Source: Clostridium sp. CAG:524
Lineage (GTDB): Bacteria > Bacillota_I > Bacilli_A > RF39 > UBA660
DNA length: 64,000 nucleotides
Assembly: GCA_000434555.1 (NCBI GenBank)
Contig: FR880110.1
Location: 95,284 to 159,283 of the forward strand
Direction: 5' to 3'
The position numbers were made by a program, and so were the translations under genes. Every line of letters starts with the position of its first letter. Within the stretch, counting starts at the first letter, position 1. Shown piece after piece: positions 8,140 to 40,922 of the stretch. The notes beneath the pieces were generated by a model, which made no database searches, was not told the origin of the DNA, and saw only the letters and a list, made by a program, of their open reading frames with translations.

Positions 8140-10608
8140 ATGTGCTATAATAATGTCATGAATAGAATAGTTAATTTCTTACAAAAATATTTTGCTGTTA
8201 TTTCAGTACTTATAGGAATAAGTATTCTTTTAAGTGTTACTTTTTCTAGTTATATCGTTACATCAAACAATCATAAAGCAGCAGAAATGTATATTGGAGA
8301 ACTTAAATATTCAATAGAATTAAATGGAAGTAGTACTAACACTTTAACAGTACCAACAGGAGAAACAATTGTAGATGTTAAGGTAAATAATTTAAATCCA
8401 GTAGATACATATTATAAGTTACTTTATTTAAAGAATACAAACATTACTGTTAAATATTATGAATCAACTAAAGATACAAATGACGTGGTAACCACATATA
8501 ATAAGCCAAATGATTCAATAACAAGTAGTAATTCAAATATAGTAAAATTATTAATTACAAACAATAGTGCTTCTTCTCAAAATATAGCTTTTACTATGAA
8601 AGGTGGATATATAACAAACACTATTCAAGATATAATAACACCATCCACTTATAGTGAGATAACATTAGTAGAAACACCTAGTACTAATACATATTTTTGT
8701 ACAACAACAAATACTTTAACACAAGGTTTAAAATATGTGAATGGACAATATACATATGCTTATAAACAAGAAGGAAAAAATAGTTCATCTTTATCTTGGA
8801 GAAATATAACTACTGATGGTTGGGGAGTACAGCTTACTGATAGAACAAGTACTGATGCAGTAACAAGTAGTTTATGTACGTATATTAACAATAAACCAAT
8901 ATCCTCAATGTCAAATATGTTTGTTTACAGTCAAGCTACTTCAATAAATTTAAGCAATTTTAATACAAGCAAAGTAACAAATATGAGTGCTATGTTTTAT
9001 AAAAGCCAAGCCACAACATTAGATTTAAGTAGTTTTGACACAAGTAATGTAACTCTTATGGATTTTATGTTTGCTTATAGTCAAGCTACAACTTTAGATG
9101 CGAGCAAACTTAATACATCAATCGTAAAAAATATGTCATATATGTTTATAGATAGTCAAGCCACAACATTAGATTTAAGTAATTTTGATACATCAAACGT
9201 AACCAATATGTATAGTATGTTTGAAGGAAGTCAAGCTACAACTTTAGATGTAAGTAACTTTGATACATCAAAAGTAACGGATATGGGTTGGATGTTTAAA
9301 GGTAATAAATCCACAACCGTAGATGTAAGTAAATTTGATACAAGCAATGTAACAAATATGAGTAATATGTTTTCTAATAGTCAAGCCACAACGCTAGATG
9401 TAAGTAATTTTAATACGAGCAAAGTAACAAATATGAGCTATATGTTTTGGAATAGTAAATCCACAATGCTAGATGTAAGTAATTTTAATACAAGCAATGT
9501 AACAAATATGAGTTATATGTTTTGGAATAGTAAATCCACAATGCTAGATGTAAGTAATTTTAATACAAGCAATGTAACAAATATGAGTTATATGTTTTCT
9601 GGTAGCAAAGCAACTACATTAGATTTAAACAATTTTGATACATCAAAAGTAACGAATATGAGTTATATGTTTTCTAGTTCTACAAATCTTAAAACAATAT
9701 ATGTAAGTAATAAGTTTAATACTGATAAAGTTACATCCAGCACTTATATGTTTTATGGTTGTACTAAACTAATAGGCGGAGCAGGAACTAAATATAATTC
9801 AAGCTATATTGATAAAACATATGCTCATATAGATGGTGGAACAAGTAACCCAGGATACTTTACTGATATTGCTGAAAAAGATATTCCAGCACCTAATTCA
9901 TTTGCGGCTGATTCATGGAAAACAATAATTAAAGCAGTTGGAAATAATAACATAAGCAAATACAATGTTGGTGATACTAGAACAATAGATATGGGAACAT
10001 ATGGAACACATACTTTACGTATTGCAAATAAATCTAAGCCTAGTTCTTGTTCTAAGTCTGGTTATTCTCAAACAGCATGCGGATTTGTTCTTGAATTTGC
10101 AGATATAATAACAACATATAATATGAATCCAGCCGGAACATATAAGAATGTAGAATATGAATATGGCTGGAATAAAGATGGTTGGCCAGCATCAGCAATG
10201 AGAACATTTGTAAATAATGATATATATAATTCATTACCATCTGATTTAAGAAGTGGAATAGTAGAAACAACAGTTGTATCAGGATATGGTAGTTCAGATA
10301 GTGCTAATTTCACGTCTACTGATAAATTGTATTTATTATCGCCAATGGAAGTTTGGGGAGATTGGACTGGAATGTATGGTTCTGAAGTAGATAGAGCTAA
10401 AAATCAGACTAGACAGTTAGATTATTATAGTAATTTAGGTGTAACCTATAATAATTATAATAGTGCTATAAAAAAACATGGAAAAACTCAATATTTTTGG
10501 TGGCATCGTTCAGCTAAATATGATAATAATATTGGATTTTATGGTATGCGAGGTAATGGATATGCCTATCGTGATGGTGGTGTTTCTCCTGCATTCAGGA
10601 TAGGCTAA
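8140..10608 (+). CDS. BspA-family / DUF285-type leucine-rich-repeat surface protein with a C-terminal globular domain
   Basis: N-terminal TM/signal anchor. Twelve 25-aa repeats of the form LDxSNFxTSxVTNMSYMFxxSxAT (DUF285 / mycoplasma-type LRR). The C-terminal ~270 aa ends ...WWHRSAKY...GVSPAFRIG. The true start may be the Met at 8158. Confidence 0.8.
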   Translation: MCYNNVMNRIVNFLQKYFAVISVLIGISILLSVTFSSYIVTSNNHKAAEMYIGELKYSIELNGSSTNTLTVPTGETIVDVKVNNLNPVDTYYKLLYLKNTNITVKYYESTKDTNDVVTTYNKPNDSITSSNSNIVKLLITNNSASSQNIAFTMKGGYITNTIQDIITPSTYSEITLVETPSTNTYFCTTTNTLTQGLKYVNGQYTYAYKQEGKNSSSLSWRNITTDGWGVQLTDRTSTDAVTSSLCTYINNKPISSMSNMFVYSQATSINLSNFNTSKVTNMSAMFYKSQATTLDLSSFDTSNVTLMDFMFAYSQATTLDASKLNTSIVKNMSYMFIDSQATTLDLSNFDTSNVTNMYSMFEGSQATTLDVSNFDTSKVTDMGWMFKGNKSTTVDVSKFDTSNVTNMSNMFSNSQATTLDVSNFNTSKVTNMSYMFWNSKSTMLDVSNFNTSNVTNMSYMFWNSKSTMLDVSNFNTSNVTNMSYMFSGSKATTLDLNNFDTSKVTNMSYMFSSSTNLKTIYVSNKFNTDKVTSSTYMFYGCTKLIGGAGTKYNSSYIDKTYAHIDGGTSNPGYFTDIAEKDIPAPNSFAADSWKTIIKAVGNNNISKYNVGDTRTIDMGTYGTHTLRIANKSKPSSCSKSGYSQTACGFVLEFADIITTYNMNPAGTYKNVEYEYGWNKDGWPASAMRTFVNNDIYNSLPSDLRSGIVETTVVSGYGSSDSANFTSTDKLYLLSPMEVWGDWTGMYGSEVDRAKNQTRQLDYYSNLGVTYNNYNSAIKKHGKTQYFWWHRSAKYDNNIGFYGMRGNGYAYRDGGVSPAFRIG
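8905..9775 (+). repeat. Array of ~12 tandem 75-bp coding repeats (25-aa LRR units)
   Basis: 75-nt periodicity is visible. Units 9424-9498 and 9499-9573 are nearly identical at the nucleotide level, and the identity continues into the next unit. Confidence 0.9.
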
Positions 10609-15697: not shown

Positions 15698-16435
15698 ATG
15701 AAAACTTGTTATCAAACTGATCCAGGAAAAGTAAGAAGTCATAATGAAGATTCAGTTACAATCGTAAAAAATCTTAAAGGTGAATATTTACTTGTAGTTG
15801 CTGATGGTATGGGAGGACATAAAGCTGGTGAAATAGCTAGTTCTCTTGTAGTAACAGAACTTGGAAAACGTTTTAGTGAACTATCTAGTATAGGAACTAA
15901 AGAAGATGCAGTTATATGGTTAAAAGAAATAATAGATGAAATAAATGTAAAGATACTTAAATATGCAGAAGAACACATTGACGCAAATGGTCTAGGGACA
16001 ACTTGTGTGTGTTCAATCCTAACAGATGATTTCTTACTATTTGGTAACGTTGGCGATTCAAGTGGCTTCGTAGAGAAAAAAGGAAAGCTTTATAAAGTAA
16101 CAAAAGATCATACACTTGTAAATATATTACTTGAAAACGGAGAACTTACTGAAGAAGAAGCAAAAAATCATCCTCAAAAAAATGTTCTTATGAAAGCACT
16201 TGGTGCTGCTGAAATAATAGATATGGACATTTTTGATGTTGAAAGAACTGTTGATGGAATATTCCTATGTAGTGATGGACTTACTAACATGTTAACAGTT
16301 GAACAAATAGAAAAAGTTCTAAATGATAATGAACTTGAAATAGAAGAAAAAGTGGATAAATTAATAATGAAAGCGAATACTCGTGGGGGCAATGATAATA
16401 TTACAATAGCTTATATGAGAATGAGTGGTGAATAG
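15698..16435 (+). CDS. stp: PP2C-family Ser/Thr phosphatase
   Basis: RSHNEDS, VADGMGGHKAGE, CSDGL and GGNDNIT motifs. Paired with the kinase gene. Confidence 0.9.
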   Translation: MKTCYQTDPGKVRSHNEDSVTIVKNLKGEYLLVVADGMGGHKAGEIASSLVVTELGKRFSELSSIGTKEDAVIWLKEIIDEINVKILKYAEEHIDANGLGTTCVCSILTDDFLLFGNVGDSSGFVEKKGKLYKVTKDHTLVNILLENGELTEEEAKNHPQKNVLMKALGAAEIIDMDIFDVERTVDGIFLCSDGLTNMLTVEQIEKVLNDNELEIEEKVDKLIMKANTRGGNDNITIAYMRMSGE

Positions 16436-18200
16436 TGTGATAGTTAAAGGTACTAAAATAAATGATAGATACCAAATTATAAAGACCCTTGGTGAGGGTG
16501 GTATGGCTAATGTTTATTTAGCTCATGATACTTATTTGGATAGAAATGTTGCAGTTAAAGTACTTCGTGGAGATCTTGCTAATGATGAAAAGTTTGTAAG
16601 AAGATTTCAAAGAGAAGCATTATCTGCTACAAGTCTTTCACATCCAAATATAGTTGAAATATATGATGTTGGTGAAGACGATGGTCAATATTATATAGTA
16701 ATGGAATATGTTGATGGTAAAACATTAAAACAAGTGTTAAAACAAAGAGGACATTTATCAGTAACAGAAGTAATTGATATAATGCTACAAGTTACAGATG
16801 GTATGGCACATGCACATGATGCTTATATTATTCATAGGGATATAAAGCCTCAAAATATAATGATTTTATCAAATGGGATGATTAAGATAACTGATTTTGG
16901 AGTAGCAATAGCGTTAAATTCTACTCAACTTACACAAACAAATTCAGTTATGGGAACAGTTCACTACATACCTCCAGAACAAGCAAATGGTAAAGGATCA
17001 ACTATTAGAAGTGATATCTACTCAATGGGAATAATGATGTATGAGTTATTAACAGGTCTTCTTCCATATAAAGGAGATAATGCTGTTGAAATAGCACTTA
17101 AACATTTGAGAGAACCACTTCCAAGTGTAAGAAAATTTGACTCATCAATTCCACAATCTATTGAAAATGTAATAATAAAAGCAACAGCTAAGAATCCTAA
17201 AAATAGATATAAAGATGCAAGAGAGATGCATGATGATTTAAAAACTGCACTTGATGCTAGCAGAGTTGATGAAAAAAGATATGTTTATCCATATCCAGAA
17301 AACGACTTAGAAGAAACAAAAGCACTTGATAAAGAAGTAGAAGCAATCAAAGATGCAACAAAAACTAAAAAAGTAGAAAAAGTCAAAGATGACACCGATG
17401 AAGATGAAATTGAAGATAAAAAACAAAATAGAACTTTAATAATAATATTAAGTATATTTGTTGGGCTTGTATTATTATTAACTGTTGGACTTACAATACT
17501 TCTTCATGATGATAATAAAGAAGCAATTATACCTGATGTTGCGAATAGGAGCGTTCAAGTTGCTACTAAGATGTTAAATGATGCTGGATTTGATATAGCA
17601 AAAGATTATAAATATATTGCAAGTGATGTTGTAAAAGAGGGAGATGTAGTTAAAACTAGTCCTGAAATTGGTAGTAATAATAAGTTACCAAAAGAAGTAA
17701 TTCTATATATATCTAGTGGTGAAGCTGCATATGTAATGGAAGATTTCACTGGTGAAAATTATTTAATTGCTCAAGGTAAAATTGAAGCAAAATGTCAGTG
17801 TAATGTCGAAATAGTTGCTGAGGCTGTTGATGAATCTAAGAAGCCAAAAGAAGATACAGTACTTAAGACTGAACCTGCTGCTGGTGATAAAAGTAAACTT
17901 GGTAGTCCTGTTAAGATATATATTCCAAAAGTAGAATATAAATATCCAGACTTTACAAAAGGATATACTATTGCTAAAATAGAAGAATTCGCAGAAAAAC
18001 ATGAATTAAAACTTGAGATAAAATATCAAGAAACAACTTCAGCAGCAGAAGGTACAATATTAAAGCAAAGTAGAGCGGCTTCTTCACTTGTAACACCTGG
18101 AGCTAGTCTTGTAATAACAGTTGCAAGAGCACCAGAAGTAGAAGAACCAACTACAGAGCCAACAAAAGTTCCAACTGAAGGAGACAATACAGGGGAGTAA
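16425..18200 (+). CDS. prkC: Ser/Thr protein kinase with three PASTA domains
   Basis: GEGGMANVY, VAVK, HRDIKPQN, DFG and a PPE-type activation loop. One TM helix is followed by three PASTA-like repeats. The start is ambiguous (GTG 16425 or GTG 16437). Confidence 0.9.
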   Translation: MVNSVIVKGTKINDRYQIIKTLGEGGMANVYLAHDTYLDRNVAVKVLRGDLANDEKFVRRFQREALSATSLSHPNIVEIYDVGEDDGQYYIVMEYVDGKTLKQVLKQRGHLSVTEVIDIMLQVTDGMAHAHDAYIIHRDIKPQNIMILSNGMIKITDFGVAIALNSTQLTQTNSVMGTVHYIPPEQANGKGSTIRSDIYSMGIMMYELLTGLLPYKGDNAVEIALKHLREPLPSVRKFDSSIPQSIENVIIKATAKNPKNRYKDAREMHDDLKTALDASRVDEKRYVYPYPENDLEETKALDKEVEAIKDATKTKKVEKVKDDTDEDEIEDKKQNRTLIIILSIFVGLVLLLTVGLTILLHDDNKEAIIPDVANRSVQVATKMLNDAGFDIAKDYKYIASDVVKEGDVVKTSPEIGSNNKLPKEVILYISSGEAAYVMEDFTGENYLIAQGKIEAKCQCNVEIVAEAVDESKKPKEDTVLKTEPAAGDKSKLGSPVKIYIPKVEYKYPDFTKGYTIAKIEEFAEKHELKLEIKYQETTSAAEGTILKQSRAASSLVTPGASLVITVARAPEVEEPTTEPTKVPTEGDNTGE

Positions 18201-19664: not shown

Positions 19665-19774
19665 TTTATTATTAAAGATTAGTTTTACTAATCTTTTTTA
19701 TTTTTTTGAAAAAAGTTTTAAAAAAAAGAAGTGTTTTATAAAGTTTTCGCTAATAATAATAGTAGGGGGATAAG

Positions 19775-21820
19775 ATGAAACAATATATTGTAAGACAAAA
19801 TGGCTATAAAGATTGTGGTCCTTCATGTTTATTATCTGTAATGAAATATTATGGATTAGAAGCTTCGCATGAAGAAGTAACTATGAATCTAAAAACTACT
19901 AGAGAGGGTACAAATGCTTTTAATATCATTAATGGTTCTAGGTTATATGGATTTGATGGCTTTGCATCTCATTATAATTATGATGACATTATAAATAGTA
20001 AAGTGACATTACCAATAATATGTCATTGTAAGAAAGATAATTTTTTACATTTTATAGTGATATATAAAATTAATAAGAAGTCAATAATTGTGATGGATCC
20101 ATCAAGCAGTATAACTAAAATCACTAAAGAACAATTTAGAGATATGTACTTGAATACTTCAATTGTTATTTATCCTGTTAAACAGGTATGTAATAGTTTC
20201 TCTAAAAATGAAAATATAATTAAGACTTATATTTGGTTGAACAGAAAAGAACTCTTTAAAATATTAATTATAAATATATTTATTATTTTGTTTGGAATAT
20301 TACTTAATTATTATTCATATATAGTTATAGATTATATATTACCTAACTATGATTATAAAAAGCTAATCGTCTTTACAATTATCTTTATAATATCTTTAAT
20401 AATTAAAACAATAATCTTATTTATTAATAATAAAATAGTTATTAATTTGAATAATAAATTATCAAAAGAATTAAATAATGATTTTATAAGAAAATTATTT
20501 TATCTCCCTTATCAATTCTTTAAGAATAAATCTTCCAGTGAAATTATATCAAGAATGAATGATTTTAAACTATTTTTAGATGTCCTATTAAATATTATTA
20601 CCACAACTCTATCAAATATACTTTTAGTTTTAATAAGTTTAACATTACTTTTAATAATCAATTATAAATTGTTCTTTATATACTTAATTGAACTTATATT
20701 ATATGCTTTTATTATTTTATTAAATAAAACTAAATTAAGAAATTTAAATGAAGAAGTTATGATTTATGAAGAAAAATATAATAAATCATTAAATGATAAT
20801 ATATGTAGCTATGAAATAAATAAAAATTTAAATTTAACAAACGACATTGTTAATCTCACTGAAATGAATTTTAACATTTATCATTTAAAAAAAACTAATT
20901 CCCTAAACAATCAAAATAAAGAAAACATTTTAAAAGATTTTGTTTCAGATTTTTCATATATATCATTTGTGTTTTTAGGTTGTATATTCATAAATAAAAA
21001 TATTTTTACTTTAGGTAGTTTTGTATTATTTCAAGCTATAGTAATATATTTTATAAATCCTATAAAAACTATACTTGATTTAAGTGAATCAATTGATTAT
21101 CTTAAAAACATTTATAAGAGAATAAATGATTTATTATTGATAAAAGATTCAAAAGATAGAGAAACAAATGAAATAATAGATGGCAATATAAGCATAAGAA
21201 ATCTATCATACTCGCCAAACAATATAGATTTTATATTTAAAAATGTATCTTTTGATATAGTTAATAGAAGTAAATTTTTACTTTATGGAAGTAGTGGTAA
21301 TGGTAAAAGTACTATTATGAAAATATTATTAAAATATTTAAAAGAATATAAAGGTGAAATTTATATAGGTGATTTAAACATTAAAGATATCAATAGTAAT
21401 GTCATATCAAATAGTTTTACTTATGTATCACAAAATAACTATATAATTAATGATACATTAAAGAATAATATTATTTATCATAGAAATATTAGTAATGAAG
21501 AATATGAAAAAATGATTAATATTTGTAATTTAAATATACTTAGGAGTAGAAGTATTTTAAGAGATAATTATGTTATAGAGGATAATGGATTTAATATATC
21601 TGGAGGAGAAAAACAAAAAATATTATTAGCTAGAAGTTTACTTAAAAATAGTAATTATATCATTCTTGATGAAGCATTAAGTGAAGTATCTTTTGATGAA
21701 GAAAAAGAAATACTTGATAAGATATTTGAATCTTATAGTGATAAAACAATAATATATGTTTCACATAAAAAAGAAATAATAGATTTATTCAAAAAGAAAT
21801 ATAAATTAGAAAGGAGTTAG
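19775..21820 (+). CDS. Bacteriocin-processing ABC exporter with N-terminal C39 cysteine peptidase domain
   Basis: C39 motifs QNGYKDCGPSCLLSVMKYYG (Cys) and HFIVIYK...VMDPS (His/Asp). Six-TM region. NBD with GSSGNGKST, ISGGEKQK, IILDEALS. Confidence 0.85.
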   Translation: MKQYIVRQNGYKDCGPSCLLSVMKYYGLEASHEEVTMNLKTTREGTNAFNIINGSRLYGFDGFASHYNYDDIINSKVTLPIICHCKKDNFLHFIVIYKINKKSIIVMDPSSSITKITKEQFRDMYLNTSIVIYPVKQVCNSFSKNENIIKTYIWLNRKELFKILIINIFIILFGILLNYYSYIVIDYILPNYDYKKLIVFTIIFIISLIIKTIILFINNKIVINLNNKLSKELNNDFIRKLFYLPYQFFKNKSSSEIISRMNDFKLFLDVLLNIITTTLSNILLVLISLTLLLIINYKLFFIYLIELILYAFIILLNKTKLRNLNEEVMIYEEKYNKSLNDNICSYEINKNLNLTNDIVNLTEMNFNIYHLKKTNSLNNQNKENILKDFVSDFSYISFVFLGCIFINKNIFTLGSFVLFQAIVIYFINPIKTILDLSESIDYLKNIYKRINDLLLIKDSKDRETNEIIDGNISIRNLSYSPNNIDFIFKNVSFDIVNRSKFLLYGSSGNGKSTIMKILLKYLKEYKGEIYIGDLNIKDINSNVISNSFTYVSQNNYIINDTLKNNIIYHRNISNEEYEKMINICNLNILRSRSILRDNYVIEDNGFNISGGEKQKILLARSLLKNSNYIILDEALSEVSFDEEKEILDKIFESYSDKTIIYVSHKKEIIDLFKKKYKLERS

Positions 21821-21821
21821 C

Positions 21822-21959
21822 ATGATTATTGAATCAGAATTAAAAGAGATAAAGGGGGGAGTAAATTGGGTAATTGTTGGCGTTGGTGGTTCAATCATTT
21901 CATTCATTATTGGCCTCGTGGATGGGTATTTAAGGCCGTTAAAATGTAGAAAAAAATAA
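21822..21959 (+). CDS. Double-glycine-leader peptide A (45 aa), putative bacteriocin subunit
   Basis: Not in the ORF track because it is under 60 aa. AAGGAG RBS and ATG 1 nt after the exporter stop. Sequence is MIIESELKEIKGG / VNWVIVGVGGSIISFIIGLVDGYLRPLKCRKK. Confidence 0.75.
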   Translation: MIIESELKEIKGGVNWVIVGVGGSIISFIIGLVDGYLRPLKCRKK

Positions 21960-21973
21960 TAGTAGGAGGAAAA

Positions 21974-22135
21974 ATGTTAAAAGAAGAAGAACTAATTAAA
22001 ATACAAGGTGGAGCAGTATCAGTTGGTACAATTATAAATGCAGTTGTTAAAGCAATTAGCTTATTAAATGAGTTAGGACAACAACTTGGTTCTGCTATAA
22101 GAAGAAAAAGAGATGGAAGAAAGTGTGCTTATTAA
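21974..22135 (+). CDS. Double-glycine-leader peptide B (53 aa), putative bacteriocin subunit
   Basis: Not in the ORF track. AGGAGG RBS. Sequence is MLKEEELIKIQGG / AVSVGTIINAVVKAISLLNELGQQLGSAIRRKRDGRKCAY. Confidence 0.75.
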   Translation: MLKEEELIKIQGGAVSVGTIINAVVKAISLLNELGQQLGSAIRRKRDGRKCAY

Positions 22136-22146
22136 AGTATATGTGT

Positions 22147-22176
22147 AGAAGAAGGGGATAACTTCTCCTTCTTTTC
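22147..22176 (+). terminator. Terminator closing the bacteriocin locus
   Basis: GAAGGGGA (22151-22158) pairs with TCTCCTTC (22164-22171), with a flanking A/T extension and T-run. Confidence 0.6.
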
Positions 22177-22294
22177 AAAATAAAGGTAAATATGTACGGT
22201 AGCGACTATCGGAATTTACGTTTGTGGAGATGAAAGTCGATGAAGCAAAAAGACGATATAATTGTAAAAGTTCTGTGAAAATAGCCTTTCTTTG

Positions 22295-22346
22295 TTGACA
22301 TTATAAATCTGGATAGTATAATCGTTATAGTTAGTTACCTAACTAA
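22295..22346 (+). promoter_or_regulatory. Sigma-A promoter plus palindromic operator upstream of the MarR-ABC operon
   Basis: TTGACA (22295-22300), 16-nt spacer, TATAAT (22317-22322). A perfect inverted repeat TTAGTTA-cc-TAACTAA (22331-22346) lies just downstream. Confidence 0.6.
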
Positions 22347-31038: not shown

Positions 31039-31236
31039 ATATTTCAGTGATGAAAAGAGTAGTAAATATATATTTATTTATAGAAAGTTAGTGGTTGATG
31101 TAAACTAATAATAAAATATATTGAACTTGCTTTTTTAGAAATAACGTTTATGCGCGTTAAGCAAATGAGAAATAGTTTAACTATAAAATAAGGTGGTACC
31201 ACGGCAATAGTCGTCCTTTGATACCATCTTTTTTGT
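31039..31236 (+). promoter_or_regulatory. T-box riboswitch leader, Leu (CUU) specifier
   Basis: AGAAAG bulge motif and a GAUGUAA distal loop. GAA-CUU-G specifier context with CTT at 31126-31128. T-box core AAGGTGGTACCACGG (31190-31204). Terminator AAGGUGGUA / UACCAUCUU (31222-31230) plus a U-run. Confidence 0.8.
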
Positions 31237-31267: not shown

Positions 31268-31630
31268 ATGGAAATATTAAAATTTATTGGTGATTTCTTG
31301 CTGATTTTTGCATTAGTATATATTGTATATAGTGTGTTTTTCAATAAGAAAAGAAAAGATTATAAAGATTTAAAAAAGAATGATGAAATAAAATTCTTCA
31401 TAAGAAAATATGATTTAGATATGAGAAAGACTAAATATAAAAGTTTACTTAGAACACTTACATTTATTAATTCTTTCATTATATCATTAGAAACTACAAT
31501 TGTACTTTATATTGAAAATTATATTGTGAAGATAATAGTGTGTTTTATATCATCAATAATTTTACTATATGTTTTATATACAATAACAGGTAATTATTAT
31601 AAGAAGAAGGAGAATGAAGAAGATGTATGA
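31268..31630 (+). CDS. Small membrane protein (120 aa, ~3 TM) located between the T-box and leuS
   Basis: AAGGAGG RBS. Hydrophobic segments [34 protein letters not shown] and [16 protein letters not shown]. Its 3' end overlaps the leuS start. Confidence 0.6.
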
Positions 31631-34445
31631 TTTTAAGAAAATAGAAGATAAATGGAAAAAATATTGGGAAAGTCATGATTGTTTTAAAACTGATACTAGT
31701 GATTTTAGTAAACCAAAGTATTATGCTTTAGATATGTTTCCTTATCCTAGTGGAGTAGGACTTCATGCAGGACATCCTGAAGGGTATACTGCTACTGACA
31801 TTATTTCAAGAATGAAAAGAATGCAAGGATATAATGTACTTCATCCAATGGGATGGGATGCTTTTGGGCTACCAGCAGAACAATATGCTATACAAACAGG
31901 AAATCATCCGGGAAATTTTACTGAAAAGAATATTGAAACATTTAAAGGTCAACTTAAAAATATAGGTCTTTCATATGATTGGTCTAAAGAAATATCTACA
32001 TGTGATCCTAAATTCTATAAATGGACACAATGGATATTTAAAAGATTATTTGAAGATGGACTTGCTAAAAAAGTTGATATGCCAGTAAATTGGTGTGAAG
32101 AACTTGGTACTGTTCTTGCTAATGATGAGGTAATTGATGGTAAAAGTGAAAGAGGTGGATATCCTGTTGTTCGTAAAAATATGAGTCAATGGGTTATTAA
32201 TATTACAAAATATGCTGATAGATTACTAGAAGGACTTGATGAAATAGATTGGCCAGAGGGTACAAAAGAAATACAAAGATATTGGATAGGTAAAAGTATT
32301 GGTGCTGAAGTTAATTTCAAAGTAAAAAATACTGATTATGATTTTACTGTATTTACTACAAGATGTGATACATTATTTGGTGCAACATATACAGTATTAT
32401 CACCAGAACATCCACTTGTTAAAGAAATAACAACAGAGTCACAAAAGGAAGAAGTAGAAAAATATATAAATGAATGTAAAAGTAAAAGTGAACTTGAAAG
32501 AACAGGTTCTAATGCTGGAAAAACAGGTGTATTCACAGGTGCTTATGCTATAAATCCAGTTAATAATAAAGAAATACCAATATGGATAAGTGATTATGTG
32601 TTAATGTCTTATGGAACTGGTGCTATTATGGCTGTACCTGCTCATGATACAAGAGATTTTGAGTTTGCTACTAAGTTTAATATTCCAATAATACAAGTAT
32701 TAGAAGAAGTAACAGGTAAAGAACAAGAAAATGAAAAACAAAAGAAATCAATAGTTGCAATACTTTATGATAAGATTGAAGACAAATATTTAACTATTAA
32801 CTGGCATTCAAAAGGTGGAAGATTATTTGTAGGTGGAACTATAAAAAATAATGAAACAGATGTTGAATGTGCGATAAGAGAAATAAAAGAAGAAACTGGT
32901 TATACTGATTTTACTCTTAAAGAGGTTGGATTTAAAATAAACCATCATTATTATGCTTACAACAAAGATACTTACTTTGAGATAGAAGCAACACCATTAT
33001 TATTTGAATTAAATTCAAGTAAGCAAGATAAACAAAATTTGGATGAAGATGAAGTTTTTGATATAGAGTGGGTAACTAAAGATATTATAGAAAAAGAGAT
33101 AAAAGATGAATTACATAAAAAAACGTATGAATATGTAACTTGTCCTGATGCTATGACTAATGATGGAATCCATATTAATTCAGGATTTTTAGATGGCCTT
33201 AATAAAGAAGATGCAATTAATACAATGATTAATTGGCTTCATGAACATAATTGTGGTAAAAAGAAAGTTAATTATAGATTAAGAGATTGGATATTCGCAA
33301 GACAAAGATATTGGGGAGAACCTATACCTGTTGTTGAACTAGAAGATGGAGAATACATTGCTCTTAAGGATAGCGAGCTTCCACTTATACTACCTGAACT
33401 TGAAGATTATGCTCCAGGTAAAGATGGAACAGCTCCACTTAATAAAAAAACTGATTGGGTAAACATAGAAATAGATGGTAAAAAAGGTAAAAGAGAAACA
33501 TCAACTATGCCAGGAAGTGCTGGATCTAGTTGGTACTTCTTAAGATATATTGATCCAAATAATGATGAATGTTTAGCAGATTATAAATTATTAGAGCATT
33601 GGATGCCAGTAGATCTATATATTGGTGGTCCAGAACACGCCACAGGACACTTATTATATTCAAGAATGTGGAATAATTATTTATATGATAAAAAAGTAGT
33701 ACCAGTAAAAGAACCATTCAAAAAACTTGTTCATCAGGGAATGATACTTGGTGCTAATGGAATAAAGATGGGTAAAAGGTATCCAGAGTTTGTAGTAAAT
33801 CCTAATGATGTGGTAAATGAATATGGTGCAGATACTTTAAGATTATACGAAATGTTCATGGGACCACTTGAAGCAGATAAGCCATGGAATAATGAAGGTG
33901 TAGTTGGAAGCAAAAGATTTTTAGAAAGAGTTTATAGACAACTTATTGAAAGTGATAAAGTAAAAGATAAAGAAAATAAAAATTTAGAACAACTATATCA
34001 CATCACAGTTAAAAAAGTAACAGAGGACTATGAAAATTTAAAATTCAATACAGCAATAAGTAGTCTTATGATATTTATGAATGCAGTAAGTAAAGAAGAA
34101 TACATAAGTAAAGAATATGCAGTTGGATTTATAAAACTTCTTTATCCAATCGCGCCATTTATATGCGAAGAAATGTATTTAATAATAGATGGCTCACTTG
34201 ATACATTAACATATGCACCATGGCCAACATATAATGAAGAATTAACTAAGTTAGATACAGTTACTATTGCGGTAAGTGTTAATGGTAAATTAAGAGCGAC
34301 ATTTGAAGCTGAAAAAGATTTAGAAAAGGATGAAATACTAAAACTTGCTCATCAAGAAGAAAATGTCATTAGACATTTAGAAGGACACGAAATCATAAAA
34401 GAAATTGTTGTTCCAAATAAAATAGTTAACATAGTTATAAAATAA
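31623..34445 (+). CDS. leuS: Leucine--tRNA ligase carrying an inserted Nudix-hydrolase-like module
   Basis: Start chosen at ATG 31623, 10 nt after AAGGAG (31607-31612); ATG 31614 is only 1 nt from the RBS. Motifs [16 protein letters not shown] (HIGH), CP1 [31 protein letters not shown], and a degenerate KMSKS (GIKMGKRY). A Nudix box is encoded at 32835-32903. Confidence 0.9.
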
Positions 34446-35854: not shown

Positions 35855-36717
35855 TATACAAAGTAAAATCAAGAGAAACGAATAAAATAGATGAACTTAG
35901 TTCAGGTATAGCATTATCATTTTTATATAATACCTTACTTGGAAGATTAATTCTAAAAATACTTACTATGAAATTTATTACTGATTTAGGTGGACTTTAT
36001 ATGAATAGTAAGCTATCTAAGCATAAAATAAAAAGATTTATAAAAAAAAATAATATCAAAATAACTGACTATGAAAAAACAAATTATAATTCATTTAATG
36101 ATTTCTTTAAAAGAAAAATTATATCAGTAAAAAGACCAATAGATATGAATAAAGATGTATTTATTTCACCATGTGATAGTAAATTATCAGTATATAAAAT
36201 TATTAATGATTTAACACTTAATATAAAAGATTCATACTATACAATTAACACATTAGTTGATAAAAATATAATGAAACAATATAAAAATGGATATGCTTTA
36301 GTATTTAGATTATCACCAAATGATTACCATAGATATTGTTATATAGATTCTGGATATCAAGAAACTAATACTAAAATAAAGGGTATATTTCATACAGTAC
36401 AACCAATATCATTAAAGCATTACAATTTCTTTAAAACTAATAGTAGGGAGTGGACTATATTACATACTAAAAACTTTGGTGATGTAATACAAGTTGAAGT
36501 AGGAGCTTTAATGATAGGAAAAATAACTAATGAACATGAGAATAATAATTTCAAGAAAGGGGAAGAAAAGGGTTATTTTGAATTTGGTGGTTCAACAATA
36601 GTATTACTTGTTAAAGAAAATGTAGTAAATATTGATAAAGATATATTAGATAATACAAGTAATAATATTGAAACATATGTTAAATATGGAGAAAAAATAG
36701 GTAAAAAAAATACTTAG
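35851..36717 (+). CDS. psd: Phosphatidylserine decarboxylase proenzyme
   Basis: Overlaps the pssA stop. YHRYCYIDSG and the self-cleavage motif FEFGGSTIV (G-S) are present. Confidence 0.8.
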   Translation: MIYKVKSRETNKIDELSSGIALSFLYNTLLGRLILKILTMKFITDLGGLYMNSKLSKHKIKRFIKKNNIKITDYEKTNYNSFNDFFKRKIISVKRPIDMNKDVFISPCDSKLSVYKIINDLTLNIKDSYYTINTLVDKNIMKQYKNGYALVFRLSPNDYHRYCYIDSGYQETNTKIKGIFHTVQPISLKHYNFFKTNSREWTILHTKNFGDVIQVEVGALMIGKITNEHENNNFKKGEEKGYFEFGGSTIVLLVKENVVNIDKDILDNTSNNIETYVKYGEKIGKKNT

Positions 36718-37442
36718 TTTAAAAAGTTTTCTAAGTATTTTTTATATGCCTTTTTAGCACTAGATTCTTCTTTCTTATATTTAAGATTATGTTCCTTACA
36801 TATTTTATTAAGTAAATAATCAGTAAAATATGGATTACGTATAAGTAATGGACCAATTATATGAGTAGCATAAACATTCTTATAGTGATATCCATCACCA
36901 TCGCTTTCATAATCATTTGAGTATTCTTTATTTACTTTAAATAGTGGACTCTTTATGTCATAAACTAAATCACATCTATTTTGAAATCCAATTATCTTTT
37001 CTTTTATATATTCAGAAGTTCCAACAACCTCACCAACAATTCTATATCCAGAAGCATTACTAAATATCTTTTCGTTTATAAGTTTAGTATGATAAGCAAA
37101 TATATCAAGAGCATCCATCTTTTCATCATTATTAATAATATATTTACCAAATAAATCCATAGAGTTACCAGTAAGTATTAAATAACCATTATTTTCAATA
37201 TATTTCTTTATATCATTTTTTCTTTTCATGATATCACTAAGTGCAAGAAATAAATTATCTTCACTGCCAGATCCAATATAAACAATATCATATTTATCAA
37301 AATTAATTTGTTCATTAATACTTCTAAAGTCAATATTTACTTTAATTCCATTACGTTTAAGTTCATTATGTAAACATCTAGTATTAGCATTCTCTCCATA
37401 TAAATTAAGAAGATCATAATATAAATGTAAAATATTAATCAT
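36714..37442 (-). CDS. gatD: GatD-like subunit of lipid II isoglutaminyl synthase (class I GATase-like); nucleophile Cys apparently absent
   Basis: Overlaps the murT 3' end by 8 nt. GYHYKNVYATHIIGPLLIRNPYFTDYLL resembles the S. aureus GatD C-terminal region. The expected G-x-C-G-G position reads LILTGNSMDLFGK. Confidence 0.7.
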   Translation of the reverse strand: MINILHLYYDLLNLYGENANTRCLHNELKRNGIKVNIDFRSINEQINFDKYDIVYIGSGSEDNLFLALSDIMKRKNDIKKYIENNGYLILTGNSMDLFGKYIINNDEKMDALDIFAYHTKLINEKIFSNASGYRIVGEVVGTSEYIKEKIIGFQNRCDLVYDIKSPLFKVNKEYSNDYESDGDGYHYKNVYATHIIGPLLIRNPYFTDYLLNKICKEHNLKYKKEESSAKKAYKKYLENFLN

Positions 37443-38781
37443 TATTATTTTCCTCCTTTATAATCTTTTTAAGTTCAATTTCTTTATCAAAACAAACCAT
37501 AGAGAATATCTTACCAGTTGTCTTATTCTTAAGTATTTCACTTAATTTACTAATGTCATCTACAAGTATAATTTTATCTTTATTAATACCTGCATATTCC
37601 ATTCTAACATTCATGTCATAACAGAATTTACCAATTAGAACAATATTTTTAATTGAAGCATCATTTAAACTTTCAAAATCAATATCCCATATCCATGATA
37701 TATCATTTTCTTTATATCTACGACTTGAAGAATCAAATCCAAGTATAATAGTTTTATCACCATCTTGATGTAATATATAATCAAGTGATTGTTTATAACT
37801 TAAATTATTTTCATTTTTACTTACTAGCATTTGCCATTTTCTATTATCAAAGTCATATATTTCAAGTCTTTTAGTTTTAATATTTTCATCATTAATAACC
37901 TTTAAAATATCTTCATCTTTAAGACCGATTGATTTAGATAACGCATAACATCCAGTAACAAAATAAACTGTATATAGAAAGTTAGATGGTAAATTTACTT
38001 CGTTATCATTAATCTTTATCTTTTTATTGTCTACATCAATATCAGTAGCAAAATAATCTGGCTTACCACGATTAAAATGATATTTAGGACAATTATATGA
38101 ACCAATATGTCCATATTGATAATAATCATATTCAAGTTTAGAATGACATATAGGGCAGTAAGCAGCATCTAAATTATTAAGATTACTTTTACGAGAATAA
38201 TTATTTTTATCAATTCCATAAGTAATAATTTCTCCTTTATGATTAATTCTAATTCTATTTACAAAAGGATCATCAACATTTATTACAAGATTAGTTCCGT
38301 TTGGTATTGCCTCTTTAATCGCATTATATATATTTTCAGGATGAGCATTTCTAGGTGGTTGATCTCTAGTTATATTAGTTATCATTAAATGAGTAGGGGT
38401 AATATATTCAAAAACATATTTCATAAATTTCTCATCTAATTCCATAAGTAATACATCTGATTTAAGTTTACCAGTTAGTCTAGAATTATTAAGTACAAGA
38501 GAAGCAATTCCATCAATAGTGTTACTTCCTTCTTTATTATAAACTACTTTATAATTATTTTTAGTAAGTATGTTATACATAAGTTCAGTAGAAGAACTTT
38601 TACCACTAGAACCAGTTATACCAATTACATATTTAGGTAGTTTAATTTTCTTTAGAATATTTTTATCAAGCTTTCTAGCAACTCGTCCTCCTATAACACT
38701 ACCAGCATGACCAGTTAGTTTACTTAGTTTATTTGTTAATTTACATGAAAGTATTACAATAAATTTCCACATTTTAATCAC
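37435..38781 (-). CDS. murT: MurT, Mur-ligase-like subunit of lipid II isoglutaminyl synthase
   Basis: P-loop GITGSSGKSSSTE. Cys-rich ribbon CPICHSKLEY...YNCPKYHF. DUF1727-like C-terminus with NDISWIWDIDFE. Confidence 0.85.
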   Translation of the reverse strand: MIKMWKFIVILSCKLTNKLSKLTGHAGSVIGGRVARKLDKNILKKIKLPKYVIGITGSSGKSSSTELMYNILTKNNYKVVYNKEGSNTIDGIASLVLNNSRLTGKLKSDVLLMELDEKFMKYVFEYITPTHLMITNITRDQPPRNAHPENIYNAIKEAIPNGTNLVINVDDPFVNRIRINHKGEIITYGIDKNNYSRKSNLNNLDAAYCPICHSKLEYDYYQYGHIGSYNCPKYHFNRGKPDYFATDIDVDNKKIKINDNEVNLPSNFLYTVYFVTGCYALSKSIGLKDEDILKVINDENIKTKRLEIYDFDNRKWQMLVSKNENNLSYKQSLDYILHQDGDKTIILGFDSSSRRYKENDISWIWDIDFESLNDASIKNIVLIGKFCYDMNVRMEYAGINKDKIILVDDISKLSEILKNKTTGKIFSMVCFDKEIELKKIIKEENNND

Positions 38782-39214: not shown

Positions 39215-39525
39215 ATAATACCACCTCCATTAGATTCCCCTGAAAAGAGAGAACAATAATGATTGTGGCGCCCAACCTAGGTACTTCGGTAATAGGTTAA
39301 CATATATGAAAATATAATGCAAAAAGGTAAAATTCAATTTTTAATTTTGAAAATTCAATTTTTCTATATAGATTTATTAAATATTGATAGAGTATTTTAT
39401 GAATAATTAAATTTTTCTTATTTACAACGTGTAAAAATTAAAATTCACTAAAAATAAAAAAATTTAAATAATACTGAAATATGTATTATTTTTTTTATGT
39501 TGTTAACAATAATATTAGGTGGATT

Positions 39526-39960
39526 ATGAATAAAAAAGAATATAAAAAGATAGTGGAAAAAAATATTGAAAAAGAAAGTCCTACTAAAAATGTTTTAATA
39601 GCATTTATAAGTGGTGGATTTGCTGGATTATTTGCTGAACTTATAACTAACTATTATATAGGATGGTTGAATCTTTATATAAGTGATGCTTATTTAATGA
39701 CATTTATAACATTTGTAACAATTGGTTCTATTTTAACAGGATTTGGAATATTTGATAAAGTATTATCAGTAGTTAAATGTGGACTTATAGTGCCAGCTAG
39801 TGGATTTGCGAATACTATGACAAGTTCTGCGATGGATACAAGAAGTGAAGGATTCATAAAAGGAATAGGTGCGAGTATATTTAAACTTGCTGGAAGTATA
39901 ATTCTTTATGGCGTTATATTTGGAATAATATTTGGGTATATAAGGAGTGTAGTATTATGA
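39526..39960 (+). CDS. spoVAC: Stage V sporulation protein AC
   Basis: Start at the Met behind AGGTGG (39526). TGFGIFDK...PASGFANTM...RSEGFIKGIGASIFKLAGSIILYG matches SpoVAC. Confidence 0.85.
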   Translation: MNKKEYKKIVEKNIEKESPTKNVLIAFISGGFAGLFAELITNYYIGWLNLYISDAYLMTFITFVTIGSILTGFGIFDKVLSVVKCGLIVPASGFANTMTSSAMDTRSEGFIKGIGASIFKLAGSIILYGVIFGIIFGYIRSVVL

Positions 39961-40922
39961 CAAAATATTATGATAACGTTTATATTAATAATAAATATTC
40001 ACTTTTAGGATCAACAAGATATGATCCAATTGTTAAAAGTAATGTTGATAATTGTATTAATGATTATTATATAGGTCAAAAGACAATTGAACTTGCTGAA
40101 AGTAAATATCAAGAAATAACAATAGAAGGTTTACTTAAAAAAAGTAAACTAAAAGAAAAAAATATAGAATTATTAATATCAAGTGATCTTCAAAATCAAA
40201 ATCTATGTTCTACATTGGGAGCATCTAAATTTAAAATACCTTATCTTGGTATATATAGTGCTTGTGCTGGATTTACTGAAGGACTTATTGTTGCTTCTTC
40301 TTTATCTAAGAATGCGATTGTTACAGTTTCTTCTCATAATCTTGTAAGTGAAAAACAATTTAGATTTCCAGTTGAATATGGAGCACTTAGAAAAATGGTT
40401 AATACATGCACATCTACTGGAAGCATAAGTGTTCTTGTGTCAAATAATGAATCTAATATAAGAATAGAGTCATCAACAATAGGTAGGGTAATTACTATGG
40501 GTCATACTGATTCTAATGATATGGGAAGTGCGATGGCACCTTCATGTGCTGAAACTTTACATGATCATTTGAAAGATACAGGTAGAAATCCAAATTATTA
40601 TGATTTAGTTCTTACTGGTGATCTTGGAATTTATGGATTAAAAATTATGAAAGAATATTACAAAAAGAAATATAAAGTGGATTTATCAAATGTTAATATA
40701 ATTGATTCAGGTAGTATGTATTTTACAAAAGAAAATATATATGCTGGAGCTAGTGGTCCATTATGTTTACCTCTTATATTCTTTGATTATATCTTACCAA
40801 TGAAAAAGTATAATAAAATATTATTAATCGCAACAGGTTCGCTTCATTCAGTATTAAGTTCTAATTTAAAACTTGAAATGCCGGGAGTAAGTCACATAGT
40901 TAGTGTGGAGGTGAAATATTGA
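39957..40922 (+). CDS. spoVAD: Stage V sporulation protein AD
   Basis: Thiolase/FabH-like fold protein (GIYSACAGFTEG) overlapping spoVAC and spoVAEB. Canonical operon order. Confidence 0.85.
   Translation: MTKYYDNVYINNKYSLLGSTRYDPIVKSNVDNCINDYYIGQKTIELAESKYQEITIEGLLKKSKLKEKNIELLISSDLQNQNLCSTLGASKFKIPYLGIYSACAGFTEGLIVASSLSKNAIVTVSSHNLVSEKQFRFPVEYGALRKMVNTCTSTGSISVLVSNNESNIRIESSTIGRVITMGHTDSNDMGSAMAPSCAETLHDHLKDTGRNPNYYDLVLTGDLGIYGLKIMKEYYKKKYKVDLSNVNIIDSGSMYFTKENIYAGASGPLCLPLIFFDYILPMKKYNKILLIATGSLHSVLSSNLKLEMPGVSHIVSVEVKY

Follow-up and report, generated by a model that had tools for sequence, protein, structure and literature searches.

What does a bacterium make with an operon that encodes little more than an exporter and two very small peptides? 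The question is raised by a locus in Clostridium sp. CAG:524 (contig FR880110.1, positions 95,284 to 159,283 of the forward strand), a stretch of 64,000 nucleotides (nt) referred to here as the window. Within it, an exporter gene stands directly before pepA and pepB, whose products, A and B, begin with double-glycine leaders. The most probable answer, to which a rough probability of 0.6 can be given, is a self-contained three-gene operon for the production and export of a class IIb-like bacteriocin of two peptides. The likeliest purpose is to kill competitors, since the peptides have the physico-chemistry, and their genes the architecture, of class IIb bacteriocins. An earlier reading of the same DNA (the original prediction) had proposed a class IIb two-peptide system; every element of it that can be tested in silico is present, and antimicrobial activity is predicted from these elements.

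The genes and their parts are arranged as follows (amino acids, aa; Cys, cysteine), the exporter gene being taken from the list of open reading frames (ORFs) and the sequence.

19775..21820 (+): exporter gene, 681 aa.
21808-21814 (+): ribosome-binding site of pepA, AAAGGAG.
21822..21959 (+): pepA, 45-aa precursor, MIIESELKEIKGG followed by VNWVIVGVGGSIISFIIGLVDGYLRPLKCRKK.
21822-21860 (+): pepA leader, 13 aa.
21861-21956 (+): pepA mature peptide, 32 aa, VNWV...KCRKK, with the Cys codon at 21945-21947.
21964-21969 (+): ribosome-binding site of pepB, AGGAGG.
21974..22135 (+): pepB, 53-aa precursor, MLKEEELIKIQGG followed by AVSVGTIINAVVKAISLLNELGQQLGSAIRRKRDGRKCAY.
21974-22012 (+): pepB leader, 13 aa.
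22013-22132 (+): pepB mature peptide, 40 aa, AVSV...RKCAY, with the Cys codon at 22124-22126.

A gap of 1 nt separates the exporter gene from pepA, and one of 14 nt separates pepA from pepB. The original prediction had placed two small ORFs with strong ribosome-binding sites at these distances behind the exporter, and both the coordinates and the binding sites hold. It had also called the locus unannotated, which is correct as far as function is concerned; the peptides themselves are nevertheless gene-called in public assemblies as identical and near-identical copies, and a 98% identical copy of pepA carries the NCBI label 'hypothetical protein [Clostridium sp.]'.

Both leaders are 13 aa long and end in GG, with a hydrophobic residue at -12, E at -8, L at -7 and I at -4, so that the conserved double-glycine leaders claimed for the two peptides are confirmed at the consensus positions. 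A pattern for such leaders (M, 1-12 residues, E/D, L/M/I, two residues of any kind, I/V/L, one of any kind, GG, then at least 20 residues) matched 2 of the 729 small start-to-stop ORFs in the window, namely pepA and pepB only, and none in 30 shuffles. Orthologues in related metagenomic species share 84% and 68% identity with pepA, and 85% and 55% with pepB. The pairwise ratios of nonsynonymous to synonymous divergence (dN/dS) are 0.08-0.23 for pepA and 0.14-0.56 for pepB; being below 1, they indicate that both small ORFs are under purifying selection. Chance ORFs can therefore be rejected, given these ratios, hundreds of homologues and a leader pattern unique to this pair.

Mature A carries a net charge of +4 and is a predicted hydrophobic helix with S14xxxG18xxxG22 (GLVDG), followed by YLRPLKC. 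Mature B carries +5 and is a predicted amphipathic helix (hydrophobic moment, muH, up to 0.58) with G22xxxG26-S (GQQLG), followed by IRR...C. The calculated masses are 3501.24 Da (average) for mature A, 4269.97 Da for mature B and 7769.19 Da for a disulfide-linked A-B dimer. AlphaFold2, run with the family alignments on each peptide as a single chain, predicts one long helix in each, at residues 16-43 of A and 17-47 of B, with a mean predicted local distance difference test score (pLDDT) of 81 for both. The charges, the muH and the helix models agree with the earlier description of a cationic pair, one hydrophobic and one amphipathic, with GxxxG motifs. Alignment between A and B is confined to their leaders, and the idea that they are paralogues was rejected.

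By homology, pepA and pepB are members of two large families, both uncharacterised. For family A, a search with a profile of pepA orthologues yielded 370 proteins at E<=10, the best 120 of the 370 reaching E<=1.5e-9. In an alignment of 42 diverse members, D34, G35, Y36, R38, P39 and C42 are invariant, as is Gly13 at the cleavage site, and the consensus ...[S/T]FxxGxxDGYLRPLKC[N/R] ends in the C-terminal motif GxxDGYLRPLKC. For family B, an exhaustive profile search with pepB gave 164 cluster representatives at E<=1e-3. Among 60 of these representatives, the only invariant columns are G13 (the cleavage site), G39 and C51; the consensus is ...ELGRxxGSAIRRxxxGxxC, with the motif GxxxG(S/T)xIRR...C. 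The exact pepA sequence occurs on 769 assembled contigs, and the exact pepB sequence on no fewer than 1,000. Metagenome samples from humans, wolves and other sources have yielded relatives, and relatives are also present in metagenome-assembled genomes (MAGs) labelled Clostridium sp., Mollicutes or Bacilli.

The pairing of the three genes was followed in the window, in 22 loci reached via peptide homologues and in 15 reached via Rpe, the latter route having supplied 79 metagenomic loci. With the family hidden Markov models (HMMs), A was found directly behind a C39-ABC (ATP-binding cassette) exporter, followed by B, in every A-carrying locus with downstream sequence. In total, 24 distinct A/B pairs occur in three genomic contexts, and A, B and the exporter are obligate co-occurring partners. 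The contexts are:

Context 1 (the window's clade): rpe, unit, marR-ABC-ABC.
Context 2: spoIIIAH-gerE, unit, cca.
Context 3: rsmD or coatF, unit, rpsU-yqeY.

The distance between the A and B genes ranges from -13 to +26 nt in these pairs, and is 220 nt where a third peptide intervenes. The frequent overlap of 1-13 nt in relatives suggests translational coupling and thus roughly equimolar synthesis. Some relatives (L039 and L051) lack an exporter within 6 kb of rpe; the unit is thus frequent at the rpe site without being universal there.

The exporter is recognisable from its domains as a peptidase-containing ABC transporter (PCAT/AMS type). It matches Peptidase_C39 (PF03412; 5e-27, 94.7 bits), ABC_membrane (PF00664; 1e-20) and ABC_tran (PF00005; 8e-21). 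The C39 peptidase spans residues 3-134, and a transmembrane domain with six transmembrane segments spans residues 161-429. The nucleotide-binding domain follows, with Walker A at 505-513, the signature at 608-614, Walker B at 629-634 and H664 in an H-loop at 662-665. Alignment with ComA (8hf4, 2e-69) and PCAT1 (4ry2, 6e-68) runs end to end. In the alignment returned by the search tool, Q8, C14, H92 and D108 fall on Q11, C17, H96 and D112 of ComA, its catalytic residues. The catalytic Cys and His/Asp that had been read from the sequence are thus borne out, and the oxyanion Gln is present too.

The exporter therefore resembles PCAT1 of Clostridium thermocellum and ComA of Streptococcus pneumoniae in its three-domain architecture, its catalytic residues and its nucleotide-binding motifs. 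It differs from them in being divergent, in an atypical D-loop region (SEVS) and in a GC content of 14-19%. TIGR01193 is its best-scoring family, but the score lies under the cutoff (308.6 against 523.85 bits), which makes it a divergent superfamily member outside that curated subfamily. The Mycoplasma-type model NF045998 ('Mbov_0121 family') gives 281.7 bits against a cutoff of 500, nearly the level of TIGR01193, and TIGR03796 gives 249 bits against 853. A literature search on Mbov_0121 found nothing relevant. A scan of a genome collection with back-translated exporter patterns, which were too strain-specific, returned only distant ABC proteins. Leader cleavage coupled to export is predicted from the two leader-bearing ORFs that lie downstream of the exporter in 24 of 24 pairs.

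The limits of the unit are set by the following elements:

19674..19707 (+): intrinsic terminator of the upstream rpe, a 10-bp AT-rich stem at 19674-19696 followed by a T-run.
19721..19769 (+): conserved upstream box, comprising an A-run, GAAGTGTTTT at 19728-19737, N12 and CTAATAATAATAG, then the Shine-Dalgarno sequence AGGGGG at 19764-19769.
22144..22181 (+): intrinsic terminator of exporter-pepA-pepB, a stem-loop at 22144-22177 with a U-rich 3' side.

The rpe hairpin folds at -8.8 kcal/mol (z -3.48), a value equalled in 0 of 200 shuffles. It was absent from the consensus scan because its stem has no G-C pairs, and it is predicted to shield the exporter-pepA-pepB operon from upstream transcription. 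The terminator after pepB folds at -16.1 kcal/mol (z -3.65), and two relatives (L005 and L007) retain an equivalent hairpin after pepB in which substitutions keep the pairing. Beyond it, marR and two ABC half-transporters have a perfect TTGACA-16-TATAAT promoter of their own at 22295-22322. Bracketed by terminators and followed by an operon with its own promoter, the exporter, pepA and pepB form an isolated three-gene unit. The ORF list holds no further ORF inside it, and nothing within or after the operon comes near any gathering score of an Rfam family or structured RNA.

The upstream box is probably the promoter or operator of this operon. It is kept in 15 diverged lineages of the rpe clade, and the 64-kb window contains a single copy of GAAGTGTTTT. 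L005 has two copies of the box, arranged as a direct repeat around an inserted 168-aa ORF. A consensus scan found no good sigma-70 match at the box, which has no resemblance to a sigma-70 -35 element.

Taken together with the predicted functions of the exporter, this arrangement suggests how the system would work. The exporter gene, pepA and pepB would be co-transcribed on one mRNA, and both precursors would be translated together in roughly equal amounts. The C39 domain would recognise the 13-aa leaders and cut after GG using Cys14, His92 and Asp108, and the ABC transporter would export the 32-aa hydrophobic A and the 40-aa amphipathic, cationic B. Outside the cell, A and B would pair as parallel helices via the single GxxxG of each, insert into the target membrane and permeabilise it. 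An interchain disulfide via the invariant Cys in the cationic C-terminal tails may staple the heterodimer. Cleavage, export, heterodimer, disulfide and killing activity are all steps that we infer from the evidence above.

Several of these features are shared with class IIb systems such as lactococcin G and plantaricins EF and JK. In these, too, two adjacent precursor genes lie in one operon and both carry double-glycine leaders. Their mature peptides are likewise cationic and helical, 30-40 aa long and unmodified, each with a GxxxG thought to mediate pairing, and a dedicated C39-ABC exporter performs processing and export, as is predicted here. For A and B, the unmodified state is suggested by the lack of modifying enzymes nearby, none having been found in any of the three genomic contexts.

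The cysteines are a first departure from this class, as the A/B family has one invariant Cys in fixed register in each peptide. The original prediction had noted a single Cys per mature peptide, which stands, and had placed it 4-5 residues from the C-terminus, which does not: it is the fourth residue from the C-terminus in pepA (Cys29 of mature A) and the third in pepB (Cys38 of mature B). Exactly one Cys is present in each mature peptide, A and B, in 24 of 24 pairs, and family-wide in 114 of 122 A sequences and 114 of 132 B sequences. The five A sequences that have none are all C-terminally divergent and look frameshifted, and every B sequence examined has at least one. The spacing is also fixed. 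Counted from the second Gly of the motif, the Cys stands at +7 in 113 of 124 A sequences (motif GxxDG) and at +12 in 124 of 133 B sequences (motif GxxxG[S/T]).

The earlier hint of an intermolecular disulfide is much strengthened by this single Cys at fixed spacing in both families and in 24 pairs, and the pattern suggests an A-B interchain disulfide as the likeliest role of the conserved Cys. If parallel GxxxG packing is assumed, the span from motif to Cys is about 18 Å in B (12 helical residues) and about 17-18 Å in A (3 helical and 4 extended residues after a conserved Pro). Since the two spans are similar, such a bond in the cationic C-terminal tails would be geometrically allowed. A and B are thus probably a GxxxG-packed heterodimer that is possibly disulfide-linked. 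Less likely roles for the Cys include a required free thiol, homodimers and modification by an unlinked enzyme. Lactococcin B, a one-peptide class II bacteriocin, offers a lead here, its only Cys being needed for activity and having to be reduced; unlike it, A and B are two partners that each keep one Cys in a fixed register, an arrangement that speaks for pairing. No two-peptide bacteriocin with an interchain disulfide is described in the literature searched. To our knowledge, all characterised two-peptide bacteriocins are non-covalent pairs with a linked immunity gene.

Immunity is the second departure. In the window, which is the part of the producer genome that the analysis covered, the 10 kb or so on each side of the unit contain no immunity, HlyD-like or two-component gene, and across the three contexts the unit is accompanied by no immunity-like, HlyD-like, kinase or regulator gene, in keeping with what had been noted at first sight. 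It had also been suggested that the downstream MarR-ABC pair might confer protection. This finds no support, since the pair has a perfect sigma-70 promoter of its own and is missing from the two other contexts. Variable ORFs beside the unit in relatives (168, 477, 108, 154 and 192 aa) were considered as immunity genes and rejected, as they match no Pfam family, lack conservation and are unlike membrane proteins.

The third departure concerns inheritance. GC content falls to 14-19% over 20000-21749, against 23-33% in the flanks, the low values being concentrated in the transmembrane domain of the exporter, with its abundance of Ile, Asn, Lys and Phe. This GC scan agrees with the earlier remark that the cluster, wedged between rpe and a MarR-ABC operon, is more AT-rich than its surroundings. 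The recent horizontal island that such a drop might suggest, and that the remark implied, is rejected. In pairwise comparisons with related metagenomic species, synonymous divergence (dS) is 0.6-1.3 for the unit, in the same range as the 0.7-1.9 of the flanking rpe and marR, and the position of the locus is syntenic across many species. Relatives of pepA were found on none of 72,556 plasmids or 2.9 million viral contigs. As the unit diverged together with its flanks, its low GC is not a mark of recent acquisition, and it appears to be chromosomal and vertically inherited with them.

Some of these observations weigh against a bacteriocin, along with others. A linked immunity gene, the usual mark of class IIb operons, is found neither in the window nor with the unit in any of the three contexts, and the pepA-pepB operon has no accessory protein either. 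Bacteriocins are usually strain-variable, and chromosomal, apparently vertical inheritance over deep divergence, off plasmids and viral contigs, is atypical for them; class IIb systems differ from the A/B unit in being strain-variable or plasmid-borne. The mature sequences have no detectable similarity to solved class IIb peptides (none at E<=10), and no PDB chain is meaningfully matched by either profile. Furthermore, no curated bacteriocin model gives the window peptides a score above its cutoff. Disulfide formation is less assured in gut anaerobes, to which the producers belong.

How far the curated models fall short can be seen in their scores. For TIGR03949 (cutoff 21.5 bits), pepA has no match at E<=1 and pepB reaches 13.6 bits; for NF038034 (lactococcin G-beta/enterocin 1071B, cutoff 37 bits), pepA reaches 17.3 and pepB 14.7. 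Against NF038034, the best family member scanned individually reaches 31.9 bits, and the lowest E-value that any of 42 members attains is 7.5e-08. Three A relatives (P0061, P0094 and P0083) pass TIGR03949 marginally, at 23-25.5 bits, and a few from Mollicutes- or Bacilli-labelled MAGs have been named 'class IIb bacteriocin, lactobin A/cerein 7B family' by NCBI. In these relatives, the match to TIGR03949 covers the leader and the Gly-rich N-terminal half, ending at residues 32-37 of 44 aa, and GxxDGYLRPLKC lies largely beyond it. No curated Pfam or NCBIfam model captures more than the leader of family B. The motif strings were not found in the literature searched, and the main text of the IIBacFinder paper makes no mention of such a family (PMC12648112).

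Among the alternatives, the one that survives best, although unlikely, is a lineage-conserved secreted heterodimer directed at the producer itself or its kin: a developmental, sporulation-associated, membrane-remodelling or cannibalism-type factor. As its target would be the producer population, no dedicated immunity gene would be needed, and none was found near the unit. This explanation is kept alive by that absence, by vertical inheritance and by the strong conservation of the motifs. The unit has a dS like that of its core flanks, a stable synteny in three contexts and no known place on plasmids or phages, and the motifs of the mature peptides are under strong purifying, not diversifying, selection. 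However, true bacteriocins also have conserved motifs, for example YGNGV in class IIa, and cationic hydrophobic or amphipathic helices with GxxxG have the physico-chemistry of pore-forming bacteriocins. A conserved, operon-specific upstream box that is unlike a sigma-70 promoter also fits a physiological role, as do the sporulation neighbours in all three contexts (spoIIIAH, gerE, gerM, coatF, ylbD, spoIIP, yabP and yqfD). Yet sporulation genes are frequent in these small genomes, which makes their proximity weak evidence, and some relatives do without the unit at the rpe site. Moreover, polymorphic-toxin-like (PT-HINT) genes adjacent to the unit in relatives suggest a context of antagonism.

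A more specific form of this idea, and a less likely one again, joins it to the cysteines: a disulfide-linked heterodimer that is immunity-free and clade-wide in uncultured low-GC gut Bacillota would act as a physiological membrane-active factor under the GAAGTGTTTT box, and not as a classical bacteriocin. The narrower proposal that A and B are the first disulfide-stapled two-peptide bacteriocin family is ranked above it, as a tentative claim that falls somewhat short of an even chance.

Two further explanations are very improbable, as no kinase, regulator or modification enzyme is found in any context. One holds that A and B are double-glycine pheromones of the ComC, BlpC or PlnA type, exported for quorum sensing by a ComA-like transporter, with the kinase encoded elsewhere. 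ComA is indeed the best solved relative of the exporter, and there is a weak ComC match (13.4 bits against a cutoff of 50), but ComC matches are confined to the leader, and no histidine kinase or LytTR regulator adjoins the unit in the three contexts or lies within about 10 kb in the window. The mature peptides, at 32 and 40 aa, are helical with GxxxG and always paired, whereas the ComC/BlpC/PlnA-type pheromones known to us are single peptides of about 17-27 aa. The other holds that they are precursors of peptides that are ribosomally synthesised and then modified post-translationally (RiPPs), with enzymes encoded elsewhere and the Cys as a modification site such as a thioether; an invariant Cys at a fixed position in both peptides would fit, and C39-ABC exporters also serve lanthipeptide and NHLP systems, but none of the three contexts holds a modification enzyme, each peptide has a single Cys without a conserved Ser/Thr-Cys pattern, and the leaders are minimal, most relatives having 12-15 aa, which does not leave enough length for the elements recognised by typical RiPP enzymes.

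The surroundings of the unit vary between relatives. In one sister lineage (L005-L009), a third double-glycine peptide of 55 aa (8168-8335) lies between pepA and pepB; it has no Cys, is weakly B-like (25-28 bits) and has no counterpart in the window. The slot between rpe and the exporter measures 110 bp in the window (19665-19774) and is a variable hot-spot in relatives (L005 5383-5889; L023 2442-3875; L044 3529-6690; also L010-L014). In these it holds ORFs of 168-477 aa with no recognised function, as well as prepilin-type (N_methyl) secreted proteins with LRR_5, DUF285 or PT-HINT (polymorphic-toxin pre-toxin) domains. On the other side of the unit, a PDDEXK_2 gene (Rpn-like nuclease or transposase-like) lies between pepB and marR in L010-L012 (8387-9239), and a 50-aa N-terminal remnant of it is found in L014 (4490-4642).

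The short interval between the pepB terminator and the marR promoter is unusually conserved. At 22192-22250 (+), about 57 nt are about 96% identical to L005, L007 and L009, while the coding DNA of the window is only 81-88% identical to theirs. A 13-codon micro-ORF, MYGSDYRNLRLWR, lies at 22192..22233 with one synonymous difference; the stretch has no Rfam match and no stable fold. At 22330-22343 (+), between the -10 element and the marR start codon, an inverted repeat (GTTAG-TTAC-CTAAC) shows no change in any aligned relative, even the distant L012 and L014, and is probably the autoregulatory operator of MarR.

Elsewhere in the window, leucyl-tRNA synthetase (31614-34445 (+), 943 aa) is preceded by a T-box leader at 31046-31221 and shows a match to the NUDIX domain (PF00293, E 1e-10) at residues 404-505, an unusual insertion just after the editing domain. 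Genes for GatD/MurT-type peptidoglycan amidation and spoVAC/spoVAD lie at 36714-38781 (-) and 39481-40922 (+), and a PASTA-domain PrkC lies at 16425-18200. These genes indicate that the host is a walled, spore-forming member of the Bacillota, although some related MAGs carry 'Mollicutes' labels.

In summary, the locus represents a large A/B family, uncharacterised and fixed in the chromosomes of uncultured low-GC gut Bacillota; the family is class IIb-like, its strict membership of that class being less clear. A locus of this type is familiar to genome miners; what is unusual is the hypothesis of a covalent heterodimer, together with clade-wide conservation free of an immunity gene. Two-peptide bacteriocins serve as models for GxxxG helix pairing and for the choice of membrane-protein targets. 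If the interchain disulfide is real, A and B would form a new structural subclass, a stapled heterodimer, and would provide a simple scaffold for peptide engineering. Two questions would then arise: what keeps the producer safe from its own peptides, and what conserved target lies behind the near-invariance of DGYLRPLKC and GSAIRR.

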